From a virus (lineage: Duplodnaviria > Heunggongvirae > Uroviricota > Caudoviricetes), in the IMG/VR virus record IMGVR_UViG_2663763339_000005, positions 1-45,686 of that record: a DNA stretch of 45,686 bases, one strand, 5' to 3'. The position numbers and the translations under genes were made by a program. The stretch's first letter is position 1. Each line of letters starts with the position of its first letter. Under the pieces are notes generated by a model that worked only from the letters and a program-made list of their open reading frames with translations, was not told the DNA's origin and did no database searches. This document shows, one piece after another, positions 24,968-36,955 of the stretch.

Positions 24968-24995
24968 AAAGGCCGCCTGTGCGGCTTTTTTTACG
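24968..24995 (+). terminator. Hairpin plus T-run between D and E (terminator-like attenuator)
   Basis: GGCCGCCTGTGCGGC followed by TTTTTTT. Confidence 0.5.
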
Positions 24996-25005
24996 GGATT
25001 TTTTT

Positions 25006-25281
25006 ATGTCGATTTACACAACCGCCCAGCTGCTGGCGGCAAATGAGCAGAAATTTAAGTTTGATCCGCTGTTTCTGCGTCTCTTTTTCCGTGAGAGCTA
25101 TCCCTTCACCACGGAGAAAGTCTATCTCTCACAAATTCCGGGACTGGTAAACATGGCGCTGTACGTTTCGCCGATTGTTTCCGGTGAGGTTATCCGTTCC
25201 CGTGGCGGATCCACCTCTGAATTTACACCGGGATATGTCAAGCCCAAGCACTTAGCATGGCTTTCTGAGGCTTTCGTGTAG
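25006..25281 (+). pseudogene. E: Major capsid protein E, 5' fragment (codons 1-81 intact, then 9 element-derived codons and stop), disrupted by insertion
   Basis: MSIYTTAQLLAANEQKFKFDPLFLRLFFRESYPFTTEKVYLSQIPGLVNMALYVSPIVSGEVIRSRGGSTSEFTPGYVKPKH matches lambda gpE N-terminus; divergence begins exactly after 25250. Confidence 0.92.
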
Positions 25282-25413
25282 TTGCTGGTTTTTACACTTA
25301 ATCTTTTGATAATAAAGAATAAGTTTATCTGGCGCTTTCACTGGATTTTCCTCGTTATCTGTGTGTTGCAATCATCTCTGTATTGCAGCTTGTATTGCTT
25401 TTTGGGGCTAAAA

Positions 25414-26649
25414 ATGGCTGGCGAGAACAAACTGAGCGACAAAGCACTTAAAGGATATCTGGGGAAACCCAGAGAAAAGCAGATCACCATTGCTGATGGA
25501 AAGGGGCTTTCTATTCGTGTGAGTACCAAGGGGGCTGTGAGCTTTGTTTTCTTCTACAGGTTAGCAGGTGGCCGGGCTGCTCCGGTCTGGCTAACGTTGG
25601 GTAAATATCCTGATATGTCACTCAAACAGGCAAGGGAAAAGCGCGACGAGTGCCGTGGTTGGTTGGCTGACAAACGTGATCCGCGTATCCAGATTAAGAT
25701 TCAGGCTGAAGAACGCTTAAAGCCGGTCACAGTGGAGGATGCACTAAATTACTGGTATGAAAATTACTGTAAGGTGCGTCGTAAAACTCATGCTGTAACG
25801 CTTGGCAGATTTCGAAAGCATATCTTTCCCTATATCGGTCATTTGCCCGTAAATGACACTCACCTATATGAATGGCTGGACTGTTTTGACCGAATTAAAC
25901 GTAATGCACCAGTTATGGCGGCGTATGTTTTTTCTGACACTAAATTAGCTCTTCGTTTTTGTCGGGTACGCCAGTACGCGACGTGTGATGCTTTAAAGGA
26001 TTTGCGCATGAGTGATGTGGGGCAGATTGCAGGTAAGCGGGATCGGGTTCTGGATGAAGCCGAACTGGGCCAGCTCTGGAAGGCAATTTTTGTCGAGCCT
26101 GATTTAAAACTAATGTCTGAATACACGCGAAAAATGTTTGTGCTTTGTACAGTATTTGGATGTCGAATGAGTGAAGCCCGATTATCTGAATGGAGCGAAT
26201 GGGATCTCGAAAGTTGGGTTTGGACTGTACCAAAAGATCACTCAAAAACTGGTGTTGAAATCGTCAGACCAGTACCTGAAATTCTACGACAGTGGGTAAC
26301 GGATGTTCACGAAGAGACAAAACATACTGGTTATGTGCTGGGAAGTCTGCGAATTAGAGAAAGCGTAAGCAAGATTGGGGGGAAAATCGGTAAACGTTTG
26401 GGCCATGAAAAACAATGGTCACTACACGACCTTAGAAGAACGCTATCTACTCATCTAAGTGATCTCGGTGTTGAATTTTATGTAGTAGAACAACTGTTAG
26501 GCCATGCGCTACCTGGCGTGGCAGGTGTTTACAACCGGAGTAAGTTTATGGCTAAAAAACTGGATGCTCTGGAACTCTGGACTACATATCTCAATAGCAT
26601 CGCAGGTGCTGATTCAAAAGTGACAATCCTCAAACAAAAGGCTGGTTAA
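25414..26649 (+). CDS. Tyrosine integrase, P4-like family (element integrase)
   Basis: ORF 25282..26649; start at Met 25414 (MAGENKLSDKALKGY...); C-terminal HDLRRT...GH...Y catalytic motifs; adjacent to left attachment junction. Confidence 0.88.
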   Translation: MAGENKLSDKALKGYLGKPREKQITIADGKGLSIRVSTKGAVSFVFFYRLAGGRAAPVWLTLGKYPDMSLKQAREKRDECRGWLADKRDPRIQIKIQAEERLKPVTVEDALNYWYENYCKVRRKTHAVTLGRFRKHIFPYIGHLPVNDTHLYEWLDCFDRIKRNAPVMAAYVFSDTKLALRFCRVRQYATCDALKDLRMSDVGQIAGKRDRVLDEAELGQLWKAIFVEPDLKLMSEYTRKMFVLCTVFGCRMSEARLSEWSEWDLESWVWTVPKDHSKTGVEIVRPVPEILRQWVTDVHEETKHTGYVLGSLRIRESVSKIGGKIGKRLGHEKQWSLHDLRRTLSTHLSDLGVEFYVVEQLLGHALPGVAGVYNRSKFMAKKLDALELWTTYLNSIAGADSKVTILKQKAG

Positions 26650-26650
26650 C

Positions 26651-26878
26651 ATGAAAAAAATGGCAATTGTTGATAAAAAGGGTCTGGAGTACATTCCTAA
26701 CATCGATCGTATGATCCGTGAGAAAGAATGTCGGGAGCTAACCACTCTTGCAAACAGCACACGCTGGAAGCTGGAGAAGGAAGGAAAATTTCCTAAGCGG
26801 ATCAAGATTGGTTCCACTGCTGTTGCATATCGTCTTTCAGAAGTGCAGGCATGGATTCGAGGTGAGTGGGTAGTTTAA
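26651..26878 (+). CDS. AlpA-like transcriptional regulator/excisionase
   Basis: 75 aa; ...RELTTLANSTRWKLEKEGKFPKRIKIGSTAVAYRLSEVQAWI is a typical AlpA HTH; directly downstream of integrase. Confidence 0.8.
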   Translation: MKKMAIVDKKGLEYIPNIDRMIREKECRELTTLANSTRWKLEKEGKFPKRIKIGSTAVAYRLSEVQAWIRGEWVV

Positions 26879-26904
26879 ATTATCTCAGAATAAAATATTA
26901 TGAA

Positions 26905-26938
26905 TTACTGATTTGAGAATTTGTACTCAAATCAGTAA
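26905..26938. terminator. Bidirectional hairpin between alpA and convergent membrane-protein gene
   Basis: TTACTGATTTGAG...CTCAAATCAGTAA 13-bp inverted repeat in AT-rich context. Confidence 0.5.
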
Positions 26939-26947
26939 TAACATTCT

Positions 26948-27484
26948 TTATAAGAGATTAAATCCAAATAAAGAGTAATCATATACCGGGGTGCATTGCA
27001 TCCCACTGAATATGCTGATGTTTTTTTCTGTTTCTATCCTTTTTTCAATAAGTTGTTGTATATTTTTACAGTACAATTTGTGTGTGATGTTATTATCGTA
27101 AGCCTGATATAGCAACGTCAATGTTGACGCTAGGAAACATACAGATAAAATTAAAATAATATATGCAGTTTTTTTATTTTTTGTCCATGATCTATTTGTT
27201 TGTGAAATATAAAGAATTCTGAGGTGGATAATGGTGAGAGACAATAGCAGGCCACTCAATAAAATAAGTATTGGGTTTGCGTATTTTATTAATGGTTGAG
27301 AGCAAAAAACTATTATAGCTCCTGTGACTGCGTATGAGAAAAAGGAGTGATTAAACTTCTTACTCCTTCTCTCAAGTATTTTAATTTCATCTTGTGTGGG
27401 GGTTTTAGATGCCTCTAATATAAGTTTATTGAATGTTTCTGTTATCTTGTTTTTTGTGTTTGTGGCTATTTTTTTTAGATTCAT
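26948..27484 (-). CDS. Hypothetical membrane protein (element cargo)
   Basis: 178 aa, very AT-rich, hydrophobic segments (AVTGAIIVFCSQPLI..., ILILLSGLLLSLTIIHL..., AYIILILSVCFLASTLTLL); opposite strand to core element genes. Confidence 0.5.
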   Translation of the reverse strand: MNLKKIATNTKNKITETFNKLILEASKTPTQDEIKILERRSKKFNHSFFSYAVTGAIIVFCSQPLIKYANPILILLSGLLLSLTIIHLRILYISQTNRSWTKNKKTAYIILILSVCFLASTLTLLYQAYDNNITHKLYCKNIQQLIEKRIETEKNISIFSGMQCTPVYDYSLFGFNLL

Positions 27485-27834
27485 AGCATTCTAACTCCCT
27501 TAACTTATTTATTACTTTCTCTTTATGATAAGAGAGGGGAATGACTTGGTAAAGTGATTTGTCATTAATAATGATAATCCTTGCGATAAATATTTCTGCA
27601 AGTTATTTATCTGTTTGTTGCTATCTTGTTAAGCGTTGGGTGTGGTTTATGTTTGGAGCGACTTTATTTAATCGTGATTTTATGGATTTATATTTATATC
27701 CTGTAAGATAAGCGCATGTTAGTTCAGGAGTAGTGTCAGATAAAATTATTCGGAGTAGAACTACCTTTTCTGTTTATTGCCAGTATTTACATAGCAATGC
27801 GCCGTAGTTACTCACATCACGGCGCTGATACTAA

Positions 27835-28137
27835 TTATTCAGATTCTTTGGCTTTACGCCGCTGGAGTTCTTCACGAGCGACGGCTACGAGTTGCCCGAT
27901 TTCCTCCGCTGCCTTGATGCCGATTTGTTCGACCTTAGCTAAGGCATCCAGTGAAGACACGAGGGGATTTTCTCCGCTTCCTTCTGCCTGGCGGCGGGCG
28001 ATCTCACCGCGCATGGCGGTTACTATGAATCCGGCGTTGCTTTCGCCGTCCAGTTTTACGGATTCCATGCCCTCCATAACATCGTGGGGAACCCTGATCG
28101 TTGTCATTTGCGATTTTGCATTTTTGTATACAGACAT
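27835..28137 (-). CDS. Putative ribbon-helix-helix transcriptional repressor of the element
   Basis: 100 aa; N-terminal TTIRVPHDVMEGMESVKL...GFIVTAMRGEIARRQ fits beta-strand/helix/helix RHH pattern; divergent from operon containing primase across an operator-rich region. Confidence 0.5.
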   Translation of the reverse strand: MSVYKNAKSQMTTIRVPHDVMEGMESVKLDGESNAGFIVTAMRGEIARRQAEGSGENPLVSSLDALAKVEQIGIKAAEEIGQLVAVAREELQRRKAKESE

Positions 28138-28139
28138 AG

Positions 28140-28345
28140 TTAATCACCAATTTGTTATGTGTATATCACTATACACAAAAGTGAGATATAAAAACACTTG
28201 CAATGTATATCACCACAATATAATGTATATCTCACATTATGGTAGCTATGTATCTCACAATGATCGATTCATAAAAACGACGAAACCCGGCAGTGCGCGA
28301 ACACTAACCGGGCTTCTAACCAAACCGTTAAACGAGGTAACGACT
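28140..28345. promoter_or_regulatory. Operator-rich divergent promoter region of the element
   Basis: Repeated TGTATATC(A/T)CAC-like motifs in both orientations (tgtgtatatcactatacaca, gtgagatata, tgtatatcacc, tgtatatctcac, tgtatctcac). Confidence 0.55.
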
Positions 28346-28711
28346 ATGGCTGGAACACAGCATACCCAAACTCACCCTAAATTTATATACATCTTTCTGG
28401 CGCTACATCGCGATCGCATAGCAGATGGAGCAACTACGGTACATGTAGCCGCTGACACGCTGGTTGATGCCCGCAAGATGGTTAAGGAGATGGGCTATAC
28501 TGCGGCTTTCTGGAAAGGGCGGGAAGAAAACACGCTGTTTATTCAGAAATGTGAAAACAATTTCATCTGGCGTTTTATCGCCCTGAGTACGGCACAACCG
28601 CGCGTGATTACCATCGAGGCCACCAGCGAACAGGAAGCCCGCCAGCAATCCCCAACTGGCTGCGTGATGATATTCGCCGCCCGTATTCGTCAGGAGGTGT
28701 GCCATGAATGA
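28346..28711 (+). CDS. Hypothetical protein, first gene of element rightward operon
   Basis: ORF 27797..28711 trimmed to Met 28346 preceded by GAGG; 121 aa; internally repeated small domain; function unknown. Confidence 0.45.
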   Translation: MAGTQHTQTHPKFIYIFLALHRDRIADGATTVHVAADTLVDARKMVKEMGYTAAFWKGREENTLFIQKCENNFIWRFIALSTAQPRVITIEATSEQEARQQSPTGCVMIFAARIRQEVCHE

Positions 28712-28928
28712 TCTTTATTTTAAAGTGCTGACACATGCTGAAAACGCGCTCGTTTGTGGCAAAAATATGCGAGAAATCTTATCAACTTGGCTTGATGGGA
28801 CAACAAATGCGGAACACGATGAACGGGATGCTAATTTAGCTGGAGCGTTAATTACGTTACTTGATCCTGTCATCAAAGAGCTGGATGAAGCTATAAAAAT
28901 ACACGACCAGAGCTATACCGGAGAATAA
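28704..28928 (+). CDS. Hypothetical protein
   Basis: 74-aa ORF translationally coupled to upstream gene. Confidence 0.4.
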   Translation: MNDLYFKVLTHAENALVCGKNMREILSTWLDGTTNAEHDERDANLAGALITLLDPVIKELDEAIKIHDQSYTGE

Positions 28929-28930
28929 AA

Positions 28931-29218
28931 ATGAAAAATAAATTTTCTGGCTTTATTGCCAGCGGTCAAACTCATTCAAAAATCAGCCTTGGGGATATTT
29001 TCAAAGATAGCTATGGCTATCGAGTAAAGATTATTTCGGTTGATGATCGCCGTGTCTCTTATTTGCGTGATGGTTATGATTTTGAATGTGTTATGCCGCG
29101 TCAGCAGTTCGAAAGAGATTTCATTCTGGTAAAAAATTGCAAGACAGATAATCAGAGGCGTGCCGCAGGCTATATCCGCAAAATTCGGGCAATGTTAGTT
29201 GCCGGAGGTAACAAATGA
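28931..29218 (+). CDS. Hypothetical protein
   Basis: 95-aa ORF immediately upstream of and overlapping primase start. Confidence 0.4.
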   Translation: MKNKFSGFIASGQTHSKISLGDIFKDSYGYRVKIISVDDRRVSYLRDGYDFECVMPRQQFERDFILVKNCKTDNQRRAAGYIRKIRAMLVAGGNK

Positions 29219-31035
29219 AACGTGCTCCGAACTTAAAATACCAACCGCGCGACAAAATGACAGAAGTCATCATTTTTGCTGGCAGTGATGCCTGGAGCCA
29301 TGCAAAAGAATGGAATGAATGGGCGGGTAAGCATATTGCAGCAGATGATACACCACCAGTAATTCTGGGTACGGAACAACTGGAAAACCTGGATGATATG
29401 CAAATTATCGATGAAGGCCGTCATTATGTGCGTGTTTATCGTGCCGGAAAGATCGCAGAGAAAAATCTGACGAAGGTTGCGACATTACTTGCTATTGCAG
29501 GCGTAAAGGAAGCACGTTGTTACCGTAGCTTTGTTGATCGAGAGCCTGAAGACTGGACTCCGCGCCTTGTCGGCCTAAAAGCTGAAGCGGAGCATGGGGA
29601 AAGTCTGGTGATTGAACTGCCAGTGAAGAAGGCAGAGCGCAAAAATGACGAGCGTGCTTCATCTTTGGCGTTGAATCAGATGGGGGCCAGCCAGCGCGGT
29701 GAAGTTCTCCTGGCACATTACGGCGGCGAACTGGCAATCAATGCCGACTCTGACACCGTTCATCATTACAACGGCGTTGTATGGGAGCCGGTTCAGGATA
29801 AAGAGTTACAGCGTGCTATGGCGCAGATTTTCATTGATGCGGAGATCAGCTATTCGCAGAACGCCATTAAATCGGCGGTAGATACCATGAAGTTAAGTTT
29901 GCCTGTAATGGGGAATACAGCCCGTAACCTGATTGGATTCAGTAACGGGGTATTTGATACCAGAACAGGTAATTTTCGGGATCATAACAAAAACGACTGG
30001 TTGTTAATTGCCAGTGAATTACCTTTCAGCCCACCAGCAGAGGGGGAAACGCTGGCAACACATGCGCCGAATTTCTGGAAGTGGTTGCGCCGTTCGGTGG
30101 CTGAGAATGACCGCAAGGCAGATCGCGTACTGGCGGCATTATTCATGGTGCTGGCGAACCGGTACGACTGGCAGTTATTCATTGAGGTAACAGGGCCGGG
30201 GGGAAGTGGTAAAAGCGTGATGGCGGAGATTTGCACCATGCTGGCGGGTAAGGCTAATACAGTATCAGCAAGCATGAAGGCGCTGGAAGATGCAAGGGAA
30301 CGTGCGTTAGTGGTTGGCTTTTCGCTGATTATCATGCCGGATATGACCCGCTACGCTGGTGATGGGGCAGGGATTAAGGCCATTACAGGCGGTGACAAGG
30401 TGGCAATTGACCCGAAACACAAAGCCCCCTATTCAACGCGTATTCCGGCAGTAGTGCTGGCGGTTAACAATAACGCCATGTCATTCAGTGACCGCAGCGG
30501 GGGGATCTCACGTCGTCGGGTGATATTCAATTTTTCGGAAGTTGTACCGGAGAACGAACGCGATTCGATGCTGGCGGAAAAAATAGAAGGTGAGCTGGCG
30601 GTAGTGATTCGTCATCTGCTTACACGGTTTGCTGATCAGGACGAAGCCAGACGCCTGTTATATGAGCAGCAGAAATCTGAAGAAGCACTGGCGATAAAGC
30701 GAGAGGGGGATTCGCTGGTGGACTTCTGCGGCTATCTCATGGCATCGGTAATGTGTGATGGCCTGTTAGTGGGTAATGCTGAAATTGTGCCATTCAGCCC
30801 ACGCAGGTATCTCTATCATGCCTATCTGGCTTATATGAGGGCACATGGGTTTGGTAAACCTGTAACACTGACGCGCTTCGGTAAAGATATGCCGGGGGCA
30901 ATGGCGGAATATGGCAGGGAGTATATGAAACGGAAAACGAAGCACGGTTTGCGTTCAAACGTGACACTGACGGAGGAATCAGAAGACTGGATGCCATCAT
31001 GTGTATCGGTCACTAATGACGATAGCAAAAATTAA
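29215..31035 (+). CDS. Primase/helicase, phage-plasmid P4-family (D5_N + SF3 helicase-like C-terminal domain)
   Basis: 606 aa; Walker A GPGGSGKS; region NGVFDTRTGNFRDHNKNDW...; followed by iteron array. Confidence 0.85.
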   Translation: MKRAPNLKYQPRDKMTEVIIFAGSDAWSHAKEWNEWAGKHIAADDTPPVILGTEQLENLDDMQIIDEGRHYVRVYRAGKIAEKNLTKVATLLAIAGVKEARCYRSFVDREPEDWTPRLVGLKAEAEHGESLVIELPVKKAERKNDERASSLALNQMGASQRGEVLLAHYGGELAINADSDTVHHYNGVVWEPVQDKELQRAMAQIFIDAEISYSQNAIKSAVDTMKLSLPVMGNTARNLIGFSNGVFDTRTGNFRDHNKNDWLLIASELPFSPPAEGETLATHAPNFWKWLRRSVAENDRKADRVLAALFMVLANRYDWQLFIEVTGPGGSGKSVMAEICTMLAGKANTVSASMKALEDARERALVVGFSLIIMPDMTRYAGDGAGIKAITGGDKVAIDPKHKAPYSTRIPAVVLAVNNNAMSFSDRSGGISRRRVIFNFSEVVPENERDSMLAEKIEGELAVVIRHLLTRFADQDEARRLLYEQQKSEEALAIKREGDSLVDFCGYLMASVMCDGLLVGNAEIVPFSPRRYLYHAYLAYMRAHGFGKPVTLTRFGKDMPGAMAEYGREYMKRKTKHGLRSNVTLTEESEDWMPSCVSVTNDDSKN

Positions 31036-31048
31036 ACTTATGGAATAA

Positions 31049-31280
31049 CTGTTCACCACTGTTCACCCTGTCATAAATATCTTTTATATCAGTATATTAT
31101 AGGGTGAACAGTTATTTATGAACTGTTCACCAAACTATTCACTGTTCACCTTTTTGATTGTTTATTGAGCTTCAAGGGTGAACAGTGGTGAACAGTTGGT
31201 GAATAGTTTTTGTGAAACTGTTCACCCATTAACATTATGAATTAAAAGAGAAAATATCAAAAGGTGAACAGGTGAAGGGT
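31049..31280. repeat. Element replication origin: ~10 copies of TGTTCACC/GGTGAACA iterons in both orientations
   Basis: ctgttcaccactgttcaccc, gggtgaacagtt, gaactgttcacc, cactgttcacc, gggtgaacagtggtgaacagttggtgaatag, actgttcaccc, aggtgaacaggtgaaggg read directly. Confidence 0.8.
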
Positions 31281-31322
31281 TAAAACGCAAAAATTTTAAT
31301 TTACTGCTGTGAGATAAAGCCT

Positions 31323-31568
31323 ATGACAGCGAAGCACACAAAAAAATCACAATCGCACGCCCTTGATTTGACGGAACACTGGTTAAGGGTGTCGATAAAA
31401 ATCATCGACCGCAACGCCGGGGAAGGATACGCGAAAGCACATCCCGAACTGATTAGCGCATTCATGACAACGGCGGCTGCAAACTTTGCCACTCTGACCG
31501 AACGGGAGATTGCTGAAGCGGAGGAAGTGACAACAATCAATATTAAGTCCGGAGAGCAGGCAGCATGA
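31323..31568 (+). CDS. Hypothetical protein
   Basis: 81-aa ORF downstream of ori, coupled to SSB gene. Confidence 0.4.
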   Translation: MTAKHTKKSQSHALDLTEHWLRVSIKIIDRNAGEGYAKAHPELISAFMTTAAANFATLTEREIAEAEEVTTINIKSGEQAA

Positions 31569-32014
31569 CGGCGCAAATATCAGTTTACGGGCGGTTGGTG
31601 GACGACCCGCAGACAAAACAGACCAGCAAGGGCACCCCCATGACGCTGGCGCGTATGGCGGTATCACTGCCCTGCAGTCAGTCGGATGACGGTCAGGCGA
31701 CGATGTGGTTATCTGTCCTGGCGTTTGGCAGACAAGCCGACGCGCTGGCAAAGCATCACAAAGGCGAACTCCTGAGCGTGGCGGGTAACATGCAGATGAG
31801 CCAGTGGACTGGACAGAACGGCGAAACGCGGCAGGGCTGGCAGGTTATCGCAGACAGCGTAATCAGTGCGCGATCGGTGCGACCGGGCGGCAATAAAGGC
31901 CAACAGGGGCAGGCTACTGACGCACTGAACAGAGCAAAACAACAGGCAGATCAGCAAGGAAGCCAGCCACCAGTGGGAGATAATGAGCAATGGGGAGATG
32001 ATATCCCGTTTTAA
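31565..32014 (+). CDS. Single-stranded DNA-binding protein (SSB)
   Basis: 149 aa; OB-fold N-terminus, Gly/Gln-rich linker and acidic C-terminal tail ...GDDIPF characteristic of SSB. Confidence 0.85.
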   Translation: MTAQISVYGRLVDDPQTKQTSKGTPMTLARMAVSLPCSQSDDGQATMWLSVLAFGRQADALAKHHKGELLSVAGNMQMSQWTGQNGETRQGWQVIADSVISARSVRPGGNKGQQGQATDALNRAKQQADQQGSQPPVGDNEQWGDDIPF

Positions 32015-32231
32015 ATATTGCCAATAAAAAAAGGCCGGAAAAAATAAATTTTCCGGCATGCTACATAAATCCCGACCAAAGGGAGTGAAGATATTAACAC
32101 TAATTTTCCGCACTGAAGTTGTCACCCCAAAACTTTATACAACATTGCACTCGGTTGCATGTATTCGCATGACAAATATCGGTGATAGCATATATCCACA
32201 ATTATTTTTAATGAATGCAAAGAGGATGCGT

Positions 32232-33272
32232 ATGGTTGATTTATATTCGCCTACTCAGCTTGTACAGGTGGTTAATGCTGTAGATGTACAAAAACAACTA
32301 AATGCGTTGTTTACCAGTTTGTTTTTTACTCGCTCGGTAATGTTTGAATCGCGCGATATTATTCTTGATACAATCGACGATCCAAATATCCCAATTGCAG
32401 CGTTTTGTTCTCCTATGGTGGGTAGTAAAGTTTCACGTGACGAAGGGTACGAATCAAAAACAATTCGTCCAGGCTATATGAAGCCGAAAAGCAGCATTGA
32501 TCCAAATAAGTTAGCTGTGCGCCCTGCTGGTGTATCACCTGAGCAATACAATGCTTTTGGGGCGCGTAATATTAAAGTTAAACAGGCGATTGTAAATCAA
32601 GCTAAAGCTATTCGTGCACGTATTGAATGGCTTGCTGTTCAGGCAATCACAACGGGGAAAAATATCATTGAGGGCGATGGTATTGAACGTTATGAGCTGG
32701 ACTGGAATATTAAACCACAAAATATCATCACTCAGTCTGGCGGTGCTGAGTGGTCAGGTAAGGATAAAGAAACTTTTGATCCAAATGATGATATTGAGAG
32801 CTACGCAGAATTTAGTGAGGGCGTCACTAATATTATCATTATGGGCGGTAATGTATGGAAGAAATACCGTTCATTCAGAGCGATAAAAGAGGCTCTGGAT
32901 ACCCGTCGTGGTTCTAATTCCGAACTGGAAACGGCCCTTAAAGACCTTGGTGATTCGGTGAGTTTTAAAGGGTATATGGGCGATGTTGCGATTGTTGTTT
33001 ACAGCGGGCGTTATACCGACGAGGACGGAACAGAAAAACATTTCCTTGATCCTGATTTGATGGTGCTTGGCAATACGGCTCTTCAGGGGATTGTCGCCTA
33101 TGGCGGTATTCAGGATCCGGAGCTAATCCGAATGGGGCTGACTAAAGCCGAACTTGCACCGAAAAACTATATTGTGCCTGGTGATCCGGCTATTGAATAT
33201 GTGCAGACACATTCAGCACCACAGCCAATACCGGCCCGCATCAATCGTTTTGTTACCGTTCGCATTGGCTAA
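32232..33272 (+). CDS. Major capsid protein, lambda gpE family (element-encoded divergent paralogue)
   Basis: ORF 32058..33272; start Met 32232 preceded by AGAGGA; clear alignment to lambda E (ITQSGGAEWSGKDKETFDPNDDIESYAEF...NIIIMGGNVWKKYRSFRAIKEALDTRRGSNSELETALKDLG..YKG..GDVAIVVYSG); ~346 aa versus 341 for lambda E. Confidence 0.88.
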   Translation: MVDLYSPTQLVQVVNAVDVQKQLNALFTSLFFTRSVMFESRDIILDTIDDPNIPIAAFCSPMVGSKVSRDEGYESKTIRPGYMKPKSSIDPNKLAVRPAGVSPEQYNAFGARNIKVKQAIVNQAKAIRARIEWLAVQAITTGKNIIEGDGIERYELDWNIKPQNIITQSGGAEWSGKDKETFDPNDDIESYAEFSEGVTNIIIMGGNVWKKYRSFRAIKEALDTRRGSNSELETALKDLGDSVSFKGYMGDVAIVVYSGRYTDEDGTEKHFLDPDLMVLGNTALQGIVAYGGIQDPELIRMGLTKAELAPKNYIVPGDPAIEYVQTHSAPQPIPARINRFVTVRIG

Positions 33273-33281
33273 GGGGGAGCA

Positions 33282-33623
33282 ATGGCTACTCATTACACTG
33301 AACTCATGGCTGGCACTGAAGCACTGGTGACTACGCTGGGGATATTTTCAGCTAATAAAGGGGTAATTCCTGCATTTACGCCACTGATGCAGGAAGATGC
33401 AACAGGTGCACTGGTAGTATGGGATGGTTCGAGCGTAGGTAAAGCGGTTTATGTTTCCGCTGTACAAATCGACACCGCGAAAAAAACACAGGCTCAGGTC
33501 TATAAGACAGGTGTCTTAAATGTTGATGCTCTGAACTGGCCTGAGTCTGTTAAAGAACTGTCAGTAAAGGTTGCAGCGTTTGTTGGCTCAGGTATTTCTG
33601 TTCAGCCGCTGGCTCGTGTGTAA
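33282..33623 (+). CDS. Head decoration protein, lambda gpD family (element-encoded divergent paralogue)
   Basis: 113 aa; PLMQEDATGALVVWDGSSVGKAVYVSAV...YKTGVLNVDALNWPE...FVGSGISV aligns with gp[28 protein letters not shown]...[15 protein letters not shown]...FAGTAISI. Confidence 0.8.
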   Translation: MATHYTELMAGTEALVTTLGIFSANKGVIPAFTPLMQEDATGALVVWDGSSVGKAVYVSAVQIDTAKKTQAQVYKTGVLNVDALNWPESVKELSVKVAAFVGSGISVQPLARV

Positions 33624-33634
33624 AGGGGGATACA

Positions 33635-34018
33635 ATGCAGAATGATTACAATGACCTTAAGCCAATTGCCGAAATGATGTACCCGAATCAAGCTGTAGAG
33701 GAATTAAAAGCTATCGCTGACAAAATGTGTTTAAGCGAGCGCCTTGTTGATATGAATCAGGTGATGGAAATTACAACCCTGAGTCGTCGTACACTGCTAA
33801 ACCTTGAGGCTAGTGGAGAGTTCCCGGAGCGTGTGCAGGTTACGGAAGGGCGTAAGGCCTGGTATTTAAGTGAAGTGATCGACTGGATAAATAATATTCC
33901 TCGCGCTTCTGAATATTGCCGCGTACCTGTCCCAAAAAAGCCAGATGCGGCGCTATGCCTCAAGATTGAGCGTGTACGCCGCAATGCACGGGATGGTCGC
34001 TATAAGCTGATTGGTTGA
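33635..34018 (+). CDS. Small HTH protein adjacent to element cos (candidate packaging-redirection / Nu1-like DNA-binding factor)
   Basis: 127 aa; MNQVMEITTLSRRTLLNLEASGEFPERVQVTEGRKAWYLSEVIDWI is a MerR/AlpA-like winged HTH; ends just upstream of cos-like site. Confidence 0.45.
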   Translation: MQNDYNDLKPIAEMMYPNQAVEELKAIADKMCLSERLVDMNQVMEITTLSRRTLLNLEASGEFPERVQVTEGRKAWYLSEVIDWINNIPRASEYCRVPVPKKPDAALCLKIERVRRNARDGRYKLIG

Positions 34019-34029
34019 TGAAATTAGGG

Positions 34030-34250
34030 CCCGCTCTGGCTGGCGGGTCCTTTCCGGCGATCCAGGACGTTACGGGGCGTCAGGCGCGCAGATTCTTGCT
34101 ATTTATGACAATTTTCTGCGATTTGCCGTTTCTGTTCTTCTTCGTTGTAACTATATGTTATTAATGGAAATGCCACCTAAAAAGAAAGGAAATGGTAAGC
34201 GCTATTTTGAGCTAAAAACAGCTTAACCGTTTCCTTTCTCCAAAATTTAC
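34030..34250 (+). other. Element cos-like site (lambda-like cosQ, variant cosN GGGCGTCAGGCG at 34075-34086, cosB-like R/IHF elements)
   Basis: ggcgggtcctttccggcgatccaggacgttacgGGGCGTCAGGCGcgcagattcttgctatttatgacaattttctgcgatttgccgtttctgttcttcttcg...aaaaagaaaggaaatgg aligns block-by-block with the helper cos at 18840-19040. Confidence 0.8.
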
Positions 34251-34260
34251 TGAGGCGGCT

Positions 34261-34686
34261 ATGAATCCATGCGCAGAAGTCATGACAACTATCAAACTAA
34301 GCGGATCTTTAGCTTCTTTGTTCGCCAGAGAACATCAGCGCCTTATCGGTCCGACGCGTGAGGCATTAAGGGTATTATCAGCCACTATTCCGGGATTTGA
34401 GAAATTCATGAACACTAGCAAGGCTTGAGGACTCACTTTCGCCGTGTTTGTGGATAAAAATAATGTCGCGCAGGATGATCTCGATTTTCCAAATGGTGGT
34501 CGTACGATTCGAATTGTTCCGATCATTATGGGGAGTAAGCGTGCTGGTGTTCTGCAAACCATTCTTGGCGCTTTCTTGGTGGTTGGTGGTGTTCTGGGGG
34601 CAACGATAGGGCAAGCATGGAACGGTGGTGTGTGGAGCGGCAAGTATTTTCTATTGGCAGAAGCCCATTCCGCCAAGATAGGCTAG
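34261..34686 (+). pseudogene. Tail assembly protein I-like ORF interrupted by a single in-frame TGA (34426-34428)
   Basis: N-part MNPCAEVMTTIKLSGSLASLFAREHQRLIGPTREALRVLSATIPGFEKF and C-part ...RTIRIVPIIMGSKRAGVLQTILGAFLVVGG resemble helper gpI (LYGDLQRFGRRIDLRVKTGAEAIRALATQLPAFRQKL / AVIHIVPRVAGAKSGGVFQIVLGAAAIAG); same frame across the stop. Confidence 0.45.
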
Positions 34687-34781
34687 ACGTATAAGATCGG
34701 TTACAATCTATAAATCAGCTGTTGAATTATTGAATTTTAACCATATTTATCAGATGGACTTCATTCAAAAAGGTAACTTTG

Positions 34782-35468
34782 ATGGCCGGACAATTAGACG
34801 AAGCAGCAAAACAGATTTTGGGTACCTTACTGGCAGATTTTACAGATCGAGGGTTAACTGCACAGGATTTAAAAAATGGTTATGAAGGCCCGAACATCAA
34901 TGCGCTAGCTACTGCAGTATGCAACGTCGCTGATTTTACATCTGTAGATTTTGAAGTTGCCTTTGGCGATCTCGAAAAAAGCAAACTAATCAAAACTGGC
35001 CCCATGAAAATGTTCGATAATGATCACAATAGCTCTGTGATCATTATTGCTTCTTATAGCCTACGTGAATATGTTTATTTGACGGAGGCTGGATACAAGG
35101 AGTCCAGGAAAGTACCAAATCGCCCACAACGTGTTCAGCGTATAGTCAATAATCTAACGATCACCGGCGGACATTTCAGCAATACGCAATTAGGGCAGGG
35201 AGAGGTCGTTTCCCAAACCCAAAACATCACAAGCAGTTCCGATTCTGAAATAGTTGCTAAGCTGATTTCTATCATTGAAGAACAGGGGCAAGTAGTTAAC
35301 AGCGATCAACGTTCTGATATTGAAGCAGCTGTGGCAGCCGCTAATGAAGGTGATGGTAAAGAAGCGAAATCATTGCTGTCTAAAGTATGCGGTCCTGTTT
35401 GGGAGTCTGTGCAACCAGTAATATGGCCGATCATTGGTGAGTTGGTTAAGAAAGGGCTCGGGATTTAA
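34782..35468 (+). CDS. Hypothetical protein (element cargo, unknown function)
   Basis: ORF 34779..35468; ATG 34782 preceded by AGGT; 228 aa, acidic, no recognised family. Confidence 0.45.
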   Translation: MAGQLDEAAKQILGTLLADFTDRGLTAQDLKNGYEGPNINALATAVCNVADFTSVDFEVAFGDLEKSKLIKTGPMKMFDNDHNSSVIIIASYSLREYVYLTEAGYKESRKVPNRPQRVQRIVNNLTITGGHFSNTQLGQGEVVSQTQNITSSSDSEIVAKLISIIEEQGQVVNSDQRSDIEAAVAAANEGDGKEAKSLLSKVCGPVWESVQPVIWPIIGELVKKGLGI

Positions 35469-35660
35469 TTTAATAAATTCTAAAAGGGCTGTTTGGGTAG
35501 TATTTTTATGGGGCTCTTCAATTAAAAGGAGTCATAGGGTCAAACGATGTGCCTATGACTCCTGGATAAAGCCATCAGAGAATATTAGTGTTAACAATTT
35601 CTCTTCAGCCCTTGTTTATACGATGCCAGCTTCAGAACCGAATCAACGCTCATGCGATCT

Positions 35661-35954
35661 TTAGCATCTCGGTAATGACAGTAAGTTATTATTCCATCGA
35701 CCATCAGCATAAGTACGTATAAATTTCCGCCCTCCCCCTCCTGGATCAACGACACCTACATCAGCACGTTTGCCATAACTATCAGTGACATAGAAAGTAT
35801 GTAACTTGTTCTCAATTGAATTAACTACATCTGCCACAGTCCACTTACTTCCAGGGGGATTAAATTGAGGGCTTCCCACATGAGTAATGTGTTCATGAAG
35901 GGCGTTCGAACTGGAGAGAGTAATACAAGTTAATCGTACATCAACCATCTTCAA
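35661..35954 (-). CDS. Hypothetical small protein, possibly DUF3892-like (element cargo near right junction)
   Basis: 97 aa with ITHVG and NNLLSLPRC motifs recalled as DUF3892-like; opposite strand, AT-rich. Confidence 0.4.
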   Translation of the reverse strand: MKMVDVRLTCITLSSSNALHEHITHVGSPQFNPPGSKWTVADVVNSIENKLHTFYVTDSYGKRADVGVVDPGGGGRKFIRTYADGRWNNNLLSLPRC

Positions 35955-36174
35955 CTCCTTATTTACTGTGAAAAATCATAAGATACAGCATGTATCGAAA
36001 TACAGCAGGGTGAACAATTTCGATTTACGAGGACTTAGCAAAGTCTCTTTCTCTTAAACTGTGGGCTTGTATTGCAGGTTGTATTGCAACTGTAGCTAAG
36101 CAATATCAGTTGTAAGCTTTATTTCTTTTACAGTCAATCGTATAGCATCGTATTTGACTCATGTAGCCCAAGCA

Positions 36175-36955
36175 TGAGGTGAATCCGCAGATGACCCTGC
36201 GTCGCCTGCCGGATGAAGATCCACAGAATCTGGCGGACCCGGCTTACCGCCGCCGTCGCATCATCCTGCAGAACATGCGAGACGAAGAGCTGGCCATTGC
36301 TCAGGTCGAAGAGATGCAGGCAGTTTCTGCCGTGCTTAAGGGCAAATACACCATGACCGGTGAAGCCTTCGATCCGGTTGAAGTGGATATGGGCCGCAGT
36401 GTGGCGAACAACATCACGCAGTCCGGCGGTACGGAGTGGAGCAAGCGTGACAAGTCCACGTATGACCCGACCGACGATATCGAAGCCTACGCGCTGAACG
36501 CCAGCGGTGTGGTGAATATCATCGTGTTTGATCCGAAAGGCTGGGCGCTGTTCCGTTCCTTCAAAGCCGTCAGGGAGAAGCTGGATACCCGTCGCGGCTC
36601 TAATTCCGAGCTGGAGACAGCGGTAAAAGACCTGGGCGAAGCGGTGTCCTATAAGGGGATGTATGGCGATACGGCGATCGTCGTGTATTCCGGACAGTAC
36701 GTGGAAAACGACGTCAAAAAGAACTTCCTTCCGGACAACACGATGGTGCTGGGGAACACTCAGGCACGCGGTCTGCGCACCTATGGCTGCATTCAGGATG
36801 CGGACGCACAGCGCGAAGGTATTAACGCCTCTGCCCGCTACCCGAAAAACTGGGTGACCACCGGCGATCCGGCGCGTGAGTTCACCATGATTCAGTCAGC
36901 ACCGCTGATGCTGCTGGCTGACCCTGATGCGTTCGTGTCCGTACAACTGGCGTAA
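36175..36955 (+). pseudogene. E: Major capsid protein E, 3' fragment (codon 82 to stop), separated from 5' fragment by the inserted element
   Basis: ...HEVNPQMTLRRLPDEDPQNLADPAYRRRRIILQNMRDEELAIAQVEEMQ... matches lambda gpE; in-frame TAG immediately upstream of the junction; 245 nt (5' part) + 781 nt = 1026 nt, the exact length of lambda E. Confidence 0.92.

Follow-up and report, generated by a model that had tools for sequence, protein, structure and literature searches.

Gene content of the locus

The window (the whole stretch of viral DNA that was analysed, 45,686 nt) carries on its reverse strand, at positions 26948–27484, an intact open reading frame of 178 codons with an ATG start. It is designated orf178 here, and its product is a predicted inner-membrane protein. 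A Shine–Dalgarno-like motif (AAGGGAG) is located 10 nt before the start codon. The same reading frame was annotated as "hypothetical protein" by PGAP in RefSeq genomes of E. coli (WP_001049527.1 and WP_001049530.1).

orf178 is carried by a satellite of 10.9 kb (approximately 25251–36174) that interrupts the lambda-like major capsid gene E of a helper prophage; the two fragments of gene E were located at 24979–25281 and 36179–36955. The 10 bp core AGCCCAAGCA is found at both satellite junctions, as attL (25241–25250) inside the 5′ fragment of the helper gene and as attR (36165–36174) just ahead of its 3′ fragment. The left end of the element is formed by the tyrosine integrase gene of the helper-embedded PICI (HE-PICI; 25414–26649, forward strand, with the start assigned by PGAP; the mechanically predicted reading frame starts at 25282) and by alpA (26651–26878, forward strand; excisionase/activator; Pfam Phage_AlpA, E=2.8e-15). 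On the other side of orf178, a gene for a small DNA-binding protein of 100 aa (27835–28137, reverse strand; YlcI/YnfO-type, RHH-like) represents the leftward gene of the satellite switch, and its position is conserved. Further satellite genes encode icd-like and DUF4222 proteins, a D5-type primase, SSB and a second AlpA-like protein, and the late zone contains the satellite's own E-like capsid protein (Phage_cap_E) and a lambda-D-like decoration protein.

The surrounding element is identified as a helper-embedded PICI at site E:Phage_cap_E_80 by its left end, at which integrase and AlpA genes run in the same direction as the interrupted gene E, by a short direct repeat, and by a replication zone (primase, SSB) that precedes a late zone containing captured phage late genes; the same satellite arrangement is annotated in RefSeq genomes. 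This type has already been published by Tommasini, Mageeney and Williams in 2023 (PMC10111431). orf178 falls in the dynamic zone of that paper, the interval between integration and replication genes, in which, according to its authors, Bro-N network proteins and immunity RNAs predominate. In the text of PMC10111431, "membrane" and "cargo" do not occur and "defense" occurs once, and no membrane or defence cargo is mentioned for this zone.

Rfam searching of the whole window at gathering thresholds gave no match. One sub-threshold SymR-like match corresponds to the switch region, outside the orf178 cassette.

Composition and signals of the orf178 cassette

The preliminary description of this DNA had reported a very AT-rich reverse-strand reading frame of 178 aa, and this was confirmed. 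The GC content of orf178 is 30.5 % and flat over the codon positions (0.30/0.31/0.31). The window has 49.1 %, the satellite 44 %, the ylcI-like gene 52 %, and int, alpA and the primase gene have 44–50 %. The drop to approximately 30 % is limited to orf178 and its upstream spacer. alpA and orf178 are convergent, and orf178 is transcribed against the surrounding operons. It does lie between alpA and the switch region, as had been described, but it does not border the switch: the ylcI-like gene intervenes, co-oriented and 350 bp upstream of orf178, and it is this RHH-like gene, not orf178, that faces the icd-like rightward operon.

A perfect 14 bp inverted repeat with an 8 nt loop (26904–26939) separates the convergent stop codons of alpA (26878) and orf178 (26948). 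Fold z-scores of −4.8 (forward strand) and −6.0 (reverse strand) were obtained, and none of 200 shuffled sequences folded equally well. The hairpin, which belongs to the orf178 cassette and not to the satellite backbone, is probably a terminator or insulator. It had been described as a bidirectional hairpin flanking the gene. The hairpin is indeed present, on the 3′ side only, and a simple terminator scan accepted it on the forward strand only; on the strand of orf178, the U-run begins approximately 8 nt past the core stem. It may plausibly be a bidirectional terminator.

The spacer that separates orf178 from the ylcI-like gene (27485–27834, reverse strand; 350 bp, 34 % GC) is 99–100 % identical across all copies that bear orf178. 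Approximately 40 nt ahead of the orf178 start codon, it contains a sigma-70-like promoter candidate on the reverse strand (TTTACC-17-TATCAT, 27525–27553), a match to only 9 of 12 consensus positions. The ylcI-like stop codon is followed by a GC-rich hairpin that lacks a U-run (approximately 27797–27825), and no terminator-like site was found on the reverse strand of the spacer. From the position of orf178 on the strand opposite the induction-driven int–alpA–primase–capsid genes, behind an RHH regulator, with a candidate promoter and with no such site upstream, we infer that it would be made in the resident, uninduced state.

In its GC drop and antisense orientation, in its candidate promoter and 3′ hairpin, and in its absence from close relatives, orf178 resembles the morons of lambda/HK97-type prophages, which consist of a promoter, a gene and a terminator with deviant GC content. 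It differs from them in that its carrier is a satellite and that its promoter and terminator are predicted only. The signals read from the DNA would be best explained by a self-contained single-gene "moron" cassette composed of candidate promoter, ORF and hairpin.

Occupancy of the slot between alpA and the switch

Of 5426 complete E. coli genomes, 179 contain the int–alpA backbone (177 of them at ≥95 % identity) and 68 the orf178 region, that is, approximately 38 % of the backbone carriers. An alpA-to-icd query revealed that closely related satellites have other genes within the same flanks; twelve loci were inspected, and occupants of the slot were counted by using junction-spanning queries. 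At least seven different occupants were identified in the 5426 genomes. orf178 is the commonest single occupant, yet a minority. The same slot holds a CAP12/Pycsar-type TIR protein in 37 genomes (E=7e-67 against the PADLOC candidate PDC-S35), a DUF2971 protein in 34 (two variants, with a SWIM protein, were among the inspected slots), a putAbiC protein in 11 (PF16872, E=2.8e-16; 60.2 bits against a cut-off of 22) and an unknown protein of 265 aa in four. Other occupants are unknown proteins of 241 aa and of 164 aa, the latter with an IS66-family element directly after it (an IS66-disrupted gene), so that several occupants are unknowns (178, 164, 241 and 265 aa). All occupants have a GC content of 27–35 %, and the recognisable slot-mates in the satellite family are all anti-phage-type genes. 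The PICI of E. coli Nissle, which has the same YlcI-like/icd-like switch, contains nothing between alpA and the YlcI-like gene.

Homology between sibling satellites ends at 26869–26883, around the alpA stop codon that forms the left boundary of the slot, and restarts at 28127, at 28293–28310 or at 28556. The minimal block that travels together in all copies bearing orf178 (26880–28127) comprises the hairpin, orf178, the spacer and the coding region of the ylcI-like gene; across the satellite family, the swap-prone region as a whole extends from approximately 26870–26883 to 28293–28556. The small leftward genes beside each occupant encode homologous RHH-like proteins. The same 101-aa YlcI-like gene and icd-like switch were also found in ordinary tRNA-integrated PICIs, in which the slot holds other small genes. 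An obligatory pair of orf178 and the YlcI-like gene was considered and rejected, since the latter is found without orf178 in other PICIs. Because the YlcI-like gene and the switch recur in PICIs with other or empty slots, we assign the RHH gene to the backbone and regard orf178, which lies downstream of it, as optional cargo.

The proposal that orf178 is horizontally acquired accessory cargo, not a core satellite function, is therefore upheld: orf178 is present in 68 of the 179 carriers, unrelated genes take its place in sibling slots, and a comparison of related elements revealed a variable slot and not the conserved presence in all related satellites that a core gene would have had.

These data also bear on the suggestion that orf178 serves the life cycle of the satellite at the membrane, either in the timing of helper lysis, as PLE LidI does, or by interfering with helper development. 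Satellites do encode small membrane proteins that alter lysis timing (PLE LidI), and a 35 %-identical homologue in a Kosakonia-type HE-PICI, in which slot and orientation are kept, hints at a lasting association with this type of satellite. Approximately 62 % of near-identical satellites lack orf178, however, so it cannot be needed for transfer; moreover, it lies on the strand opposite the induction-driven genes, and homologues occur outside satellites on Pseudomonas chromosomes. A life-cycle function is thus considered very unlikely.

Rousset et al. in 2022 reportedly described comparable accessory hotspots in P4-like satellites. The slot is like the immune hotspots of PICIs and P4-like elements in that unrelated low-GC genes are swapped at a fixed int/alpA-adjacent position in near-identical satellites, and in that its recognisable occupants are TIR/PDC-S35, putAbiC and DUF2971 proteins. 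It is unlike those described in that orf178 matches no known defence family and that the slot includes the leftward RHH regulator and operator region, so that cargo and immunity type are exchanged together. Carriage of immune systems at the 5′ or 3′ ends of PICIs is reported in a passage of PMC11364771 that cites Fillol-Salom et al. 2022.

The slot-mates lend some weight to an abortive-infection effector, which would be inert in the membrane until infection and would then oligomerise and depolarise or permeabilise the inner membrane; the cell would be killed before phage release, as with RexB, the transmembrane (TM) effectors of retrons and CBASS, and AbiC-type proteins. In sibling satellites, the putAbiC membrane protein occupies the same slot on the same strand, and in the 11 genomes concerned it shares with orf178 the position behind the RHH gene and the low GC content. 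The two proteins have no sequence similarity, and they differ in architecture: the putAbiC protein has one N-terminal TM helix and a large soluble domain, orf178 three TM helices and a small periplasmic domain (as predicted).

Alleles, selection and protein family

All 14 distinct DNA alleles, from genome and viral-contig loci, keep the frame of 178 codons. Against two divergent allele groups, dN/dS was 0.05–0.21 in codons 1–81 and 0.11 in codons 120–178. In codons 82–119, dS was approximately 0.4 and dN/dS approximately 1, and the DNA around this patch is 98–100 % identical; the patch seems to have been imported by recombination from a more distantly related allele. orf178 is a real gene under purifying selection.

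It might still be argued that the reading frame is decaying or non-functional, an AT-rich remnant kept by hitch-hiking. Truncated versions are present in the databases (clusters of 110, 130 and 97 aa), dN/dS is near 1 in codons 82–119, and GC content is flat over the codon positions. On the other hand, all 14 alleles are intact, with strong purifying selection outside the patch; distant homologues in other genera keep specific residues, and a co-evolution signal gave an AlphaFold (AF2) pLDDT of 87. That orf178 is a remnant of this kind is barely credible.

A word-indexed search of 5.8 billion proteins returned only copies of ≥83 % identity, from E. coli wherever a name was given. Exhaustive scanning of 1.84 billion cluster representatives by using HMMER yielded eight distant relatives of 113–175 aa (E=8e-20 to 2e-4), full-length or nearly so, and a profile search enlarged the family to a total of 15 clusters. 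The family is thus tiny, at 24–36 % identity. Residues P71, C139, Q143, F159 and C164 are invariant in the family alignment, and F48, P64, G78 and E153 are nearly so.

Searches of Pfam, PHROG and NCBIfam with orf178 gave no family match, only sub-threshold noise of the kind expected from TM composition, and the 14 family members share no Pfam family. At E≤0.01, none of the PADLOC-DB 2.0 defence HMMs and none of the PHROG families (holins, RexB, Imm and other phage membrane proteins) was matched. The Pfam model of putAbiC (PF16872) was not matched either, its gathering score being the threshold. A tblastn search of 50,697 phage genomes at E≤1 returned no homologue of orf178. One weak match was obtained on a Pantoea plasmid. 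Every source labels the family proteins as hypothetical, and a literature search with the RefSeq protein accessions and locus tags retrieved no paper. The family is unnamed, very rare and uncharacterised. It is newly described here, together with the documentation of the at least seven occupants that are swapped in the slot along with the operator side of the switch; the satellite type (PMC10111431) and the carriage of immune genes at PICI ends (PMC11364771) had been published.

Predicted structure and topology

Several TM segments had been predicted in the preliminary description. Kyte–Doolittle analysis gave three hydrophobic stretches (approximately residues 48–66, 70–92 and 106–128), and AlphaFold placed helices over the same residues. 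With a shallow alignment of seven sequences, a pLDDT of 42.7 was obtained and the model was unusable; with the family alignment of 14 sequences, AF2 reached a pLDDT of 87.3, because the co-evolution signal is strong, and predicted an all-helical architecture of five helices (3–26, 31–68, 71–94, 100–147 and 152–161). Fold searches revealed no informative fold relative and nothing specific, and the family profile had no meaningful match among PDB sequences.

The predicted layout comprises basic helices (1–47), a TM hairpin (48–92), a basic loop (93–105), a third TM helix (TM3, 106–128) and a C-terminal domain (129–165). Almost all members have a net positive charge in the N-terminus and in the loop; acidic residues are very rare in the loop, and the C-terminal domain is neutral to acidic across the family. 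From the positive-inside rule and hydropathy we infer a topology in which the N-terminus would be inside, the TM1–TM2 turn outside, the 93–105 loop cytoplasmic and the C-terminal domain of approximately 50 residues periplasmic. The turn carries the conserved motif QPLxK[YF]xNP and the C-terminal domain the motif HDxYCxxxQ...EKNSxIFNNMxCR, in which C139 and C164 are invariant. Judging by the geometry of the modelled helices, these two cysteines probably form a periplasmic disulfide.

Column identity is 0.59 in the TM1–TM2 turn and 0.39 in the C-terminal domain, and low in the N-terminus (0.20), the basic loop (0.24) and TM3 (0.14). Conservation is thus concentrated on the predicted periplasmic face. 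Such a surface would predict a mechanism that can be tested, interference with DNA delivery and not cytoplasmic sensing. It also speaks against an abortive-infection effector, since the cytoplasmic parts, which would sense the trigger, are the least conserved and the periplasmic parts the most conserved in the predicted topology. In favour of such an effector, weak matches to Saf_2TM and DUF4231 were obtained (both E=0.036), in one family member only; these TM-effector matches are far below the cut-offs and not family-wide.

A conserved surface in the periplasm with two invariant cysteines would also suit an orphan immunity protein, directed against a membrane- or periplasm-acting bacteriocin or a T6SS toxin and analogous to the immunity proteins of pore-forming colicins with their three to four TM segments. 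The benefit would then be a competitive advantage, not phage resistance. The colicin A immunity protein is similar in size to orf178. Against this stands that no Pfam immunity family was matched and that the recognisable slot-mates are all of the anti-phage type.

Genomic contexts of the homologues

In the HE-PICI of Kosakonia/Phytobacter, the 35 %-identical homologue lies in the same slot and on the same strand, 67 nt behind an RHH gene of 59 aa and next to a gene for a 203-aa single-TM protein. The Pantoea homologue adjoins an HNH-domain gene and, by reading of the translations, is directly beside T6SS tssF/G/J-like genes, with primase and integrase (satellite) remnants close to smpB. In Pseudomonas mandelii, the homologue follows a retron type XI RT-protease gene (PADLOC, E=1e-174) on the same strand after 49 nt, and it also adjoins a DUF4238 gene. 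On a metagenomic contig, a homologue adjoins a Hachiman-type HamB helicase gene. One homologue lies approximately 3 kb from a pyocin S/immunity pair, and in an Imm42–umuDC context another lies approximately 1 kb from the Imm42 immunity gene. The neighbours in another Pseudomonas-like context were uninformative, and a metagenome scan with the family alignment added only one new distant context.

A two-gene system with a conserved partner, such as a toxin–antitoxin pair, was considered and rejected, as the neighbours of the distant homologues are mutually unrelated; the family therefore behaves as a single-gene cassette in mobile and conflict islands. It is rare and found in satellites and conflict islands. 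A retron RT is adjacent in only one of approximately eight distinct contexts, and no RT was found in the window or in the other homologue loci inspected.

The co-oriented homologue 49 nt behind the retron RT-protease and the one beside the Hachiman-like helicase speak in favour of an abortive-infection effector. However, retron type XI has been described as a single-gene system (PADLOC model note; PMC7736814), and no sensor partner is conserved across the contexts. Taking these data together with the slot-mates and the predicted topology, we consider abortive infection unlikely.

Proximity to the pyocin S/immunity pair, to Imm42 and to the T6SS tssF/G/J-like genes points instead towards orphan immunity and, together with the umuDC context, counts against an anti-phage role. 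The gene of a cognate toxin, however, is adjacent in none of the contexts, and two of the homologue contexts are clear phage-defence islands. Orphan immunity is accordingly regarded as distinctly improbable.

Proposed role in phage exclusion

The preliminary description had named orf178 a candidate abortive-infection or superinfection-exclusion effector, which agrees with the slot-mates and with some of the other contexts of the family. Between these two, exclusion at the envelope is favoured because the conserved surface would face the periplasm and no sensor partner was found. Our preferred reading, which is put forward tentatively and by analogy, is that orf178 may be a single-gene envelope-level phage-exclusion protein, SieA-like in action and not homologous to SieA. 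Made in the resident state, it would protect the cell, the helper prophage and the satellite from incoming phages at the envelope. It would most likely do so by blocking the ejected tail-tip/tape-measure machinery as this engages the inner membrane for DNA delivery, that is, by superinfection exclusion as exerted by P22 SieA, HK97 gp15 or T4 Imm. Classical Sie genes are mostly phage-borne, and the absence of orf178 from the 50,697 phage genomes counts against exclusion.

A more far-reaching reading, about which we are rather doubtful, is that the family might constitute a previously unrecognised single-gene anti-phage system of the envelope, in which the small disulfide-bonded periplasmic domain and the QPLxK[YF]xNP turn would intercept a DNA-delivery apparatus, probably of lambdoid phages. 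HE satellites would carry the family to guard the helper–satellite composite, and it would also be scattered over the defence islands of Enterobacterales and Pseudomonas.

If orf178 blocks entry or aborts infection, it represents a new and very small single-gene anti-phage family, and the alpA-proximal slot of HE-PICIs would be a productive source of defence genes that are missed by HMM catalogues. If it is inactive against phages, orf178 is an ordinary hypothetical moron in a satellite type and a hotspot phenomenon that have both been published.

Comparison with P22 SieA

[quoted passage not shown] Homology was rejected by comparison of the family profile with P22 SieA by using hhalign (probability 0.2 %), so that the relation proposed for exclusion is one of functional analogy and not of family membership. 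The SieA motif FxRYPxEAxxFNK is absent from orf178; the conserved motif of SieA is predicted to be cytoplasmic, whereas the conserved residues of orf178 are predicted to be periplasmic. SieA is carried by a phage, orf178 by a satellite and without a homologue in phage genomes. The two loci are parallel in arrangement. In the immI region of P22, the reverse-strand gene sieA follows mnt, which encodes an RHH repressor; sieA has its own promoter and is divergent from arc–ant; orf178 likewise lies on the reverse strand behind the YlcI-like RHH gene, divergent from an antirepressor-type operon and preceded by a promoter candidate.

Insertion site and right-end variable region

The entire satellite (window 25241-36174), a helper-embedded phage-inducible chromosomal island (HE-PICI), interrupts the major capsid gene E of the helper prophage, fragments of which were located at 24979-25281 and 36179-36955. 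The left and right att cores lie at 25241-25250 and 36165-36174, respectively. This arrangement agrees with the published helper-embedded PICI type that uses site E:Phage_cap_E_80 (PMC10111431). The satellite has a full-length E-like capsid gene of its own (32232-33272); a decoration gene resembling that of lambda D (33282-33623) comes next, then a second AlpA-like gene (33635-34018). The right-end accessory region (34019-36160) is a second variable hotspot of the satellite: its products in this copy are a protein of 229 aa that matched no family (34779-35468, +) and, from the opposite strand, a DUF3892 protein (35661-35954, -), and in sibling satellites it holds HEPN+DUF262, TIR, an Abi-family gene, DUF2971 or a small terminase subunit.

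Divergent patch and upstream spacer of orf178

Two allele groups of orf178, the gene for the predicted inner-membrane protein in the slot between alpA and the switch, were separated by a sharp-edged divergent patch at codons 82-119 (27128-27241), which runs from the end of TM2 through the basic loop into the beginning of TM3. Within the patch dS was about 0.4 and dN/dS about 1, and the flanking DNA was 98-100 % identical between the two groups. The patch looks like a short recombinant import.

The AT-rich spacer of 350 bp upstream of orf178 (27485-27834) is better conserved than orf178 itself, because it showed 99-100 % identity across all orf178 carriers. It also folded better than its shuffles (z=-3.4), and is opened by a GC-rich hairpin without a U-run, directly after the stop codon of the ylcI-like gene.

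Switch region

In the satellite switch (27835-28711), a leftward gene for an RHH-like protein is followed by the membrane-protein gene, and the icd-like operon is divergent; this layout is shared with P22 immI (L044, 1337-3994), in which mnt-orf59a-sieA is set against arc-ant. Across all slot variants, the small proteins encoded leftward were homologous to one another; their alignment to Mnt was to its RHH part, with an identity of only 16 %. The Rfam model of the SymR antitoxin RNA matched below its threshold at 28279-28351 (-; 33.6 bits, gathering score 61, E=5.5e-4). This SymR-like stretch lies upstream of the icd-like gene, in the region of the divergent promoters, and may represent an antisense RNA that regulates the switch.

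Homologues of orf178 in other genomes

In Pseudomonas mandelii (L013, 6303-8447), a distant orf178 homologue was found 49 nt downstream of a retron type XI RT-protease gene and co-oriented with it. Retron type XI is described as a single-gene system (PADLOC model note; PMC7736814); the two genes may be chance neighbours in a defence island, or the homologue may be an unrecognised accessory membrane component.

The satellite of E. coli IAI39 (L002, 9288-10804) carries an integrase truncated by an IS3-family element and a primase with an internal stop; the composite adjoins a tRNA-Arg gene, and only a 3' fragment of the capsid gene remains. Its orf178 is intact, and the gene has therefore persisted in a decaying satellite copy.

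The HE-PICI slot of Kosakonia sp. S29 / Phytobacter (L019, 8510-9121) contains two cargo genes. One encodes an orf178 homologue; the other, which has the same orientation as alpA, encodes a single-TM protein of 203 aa without a Pfam match.
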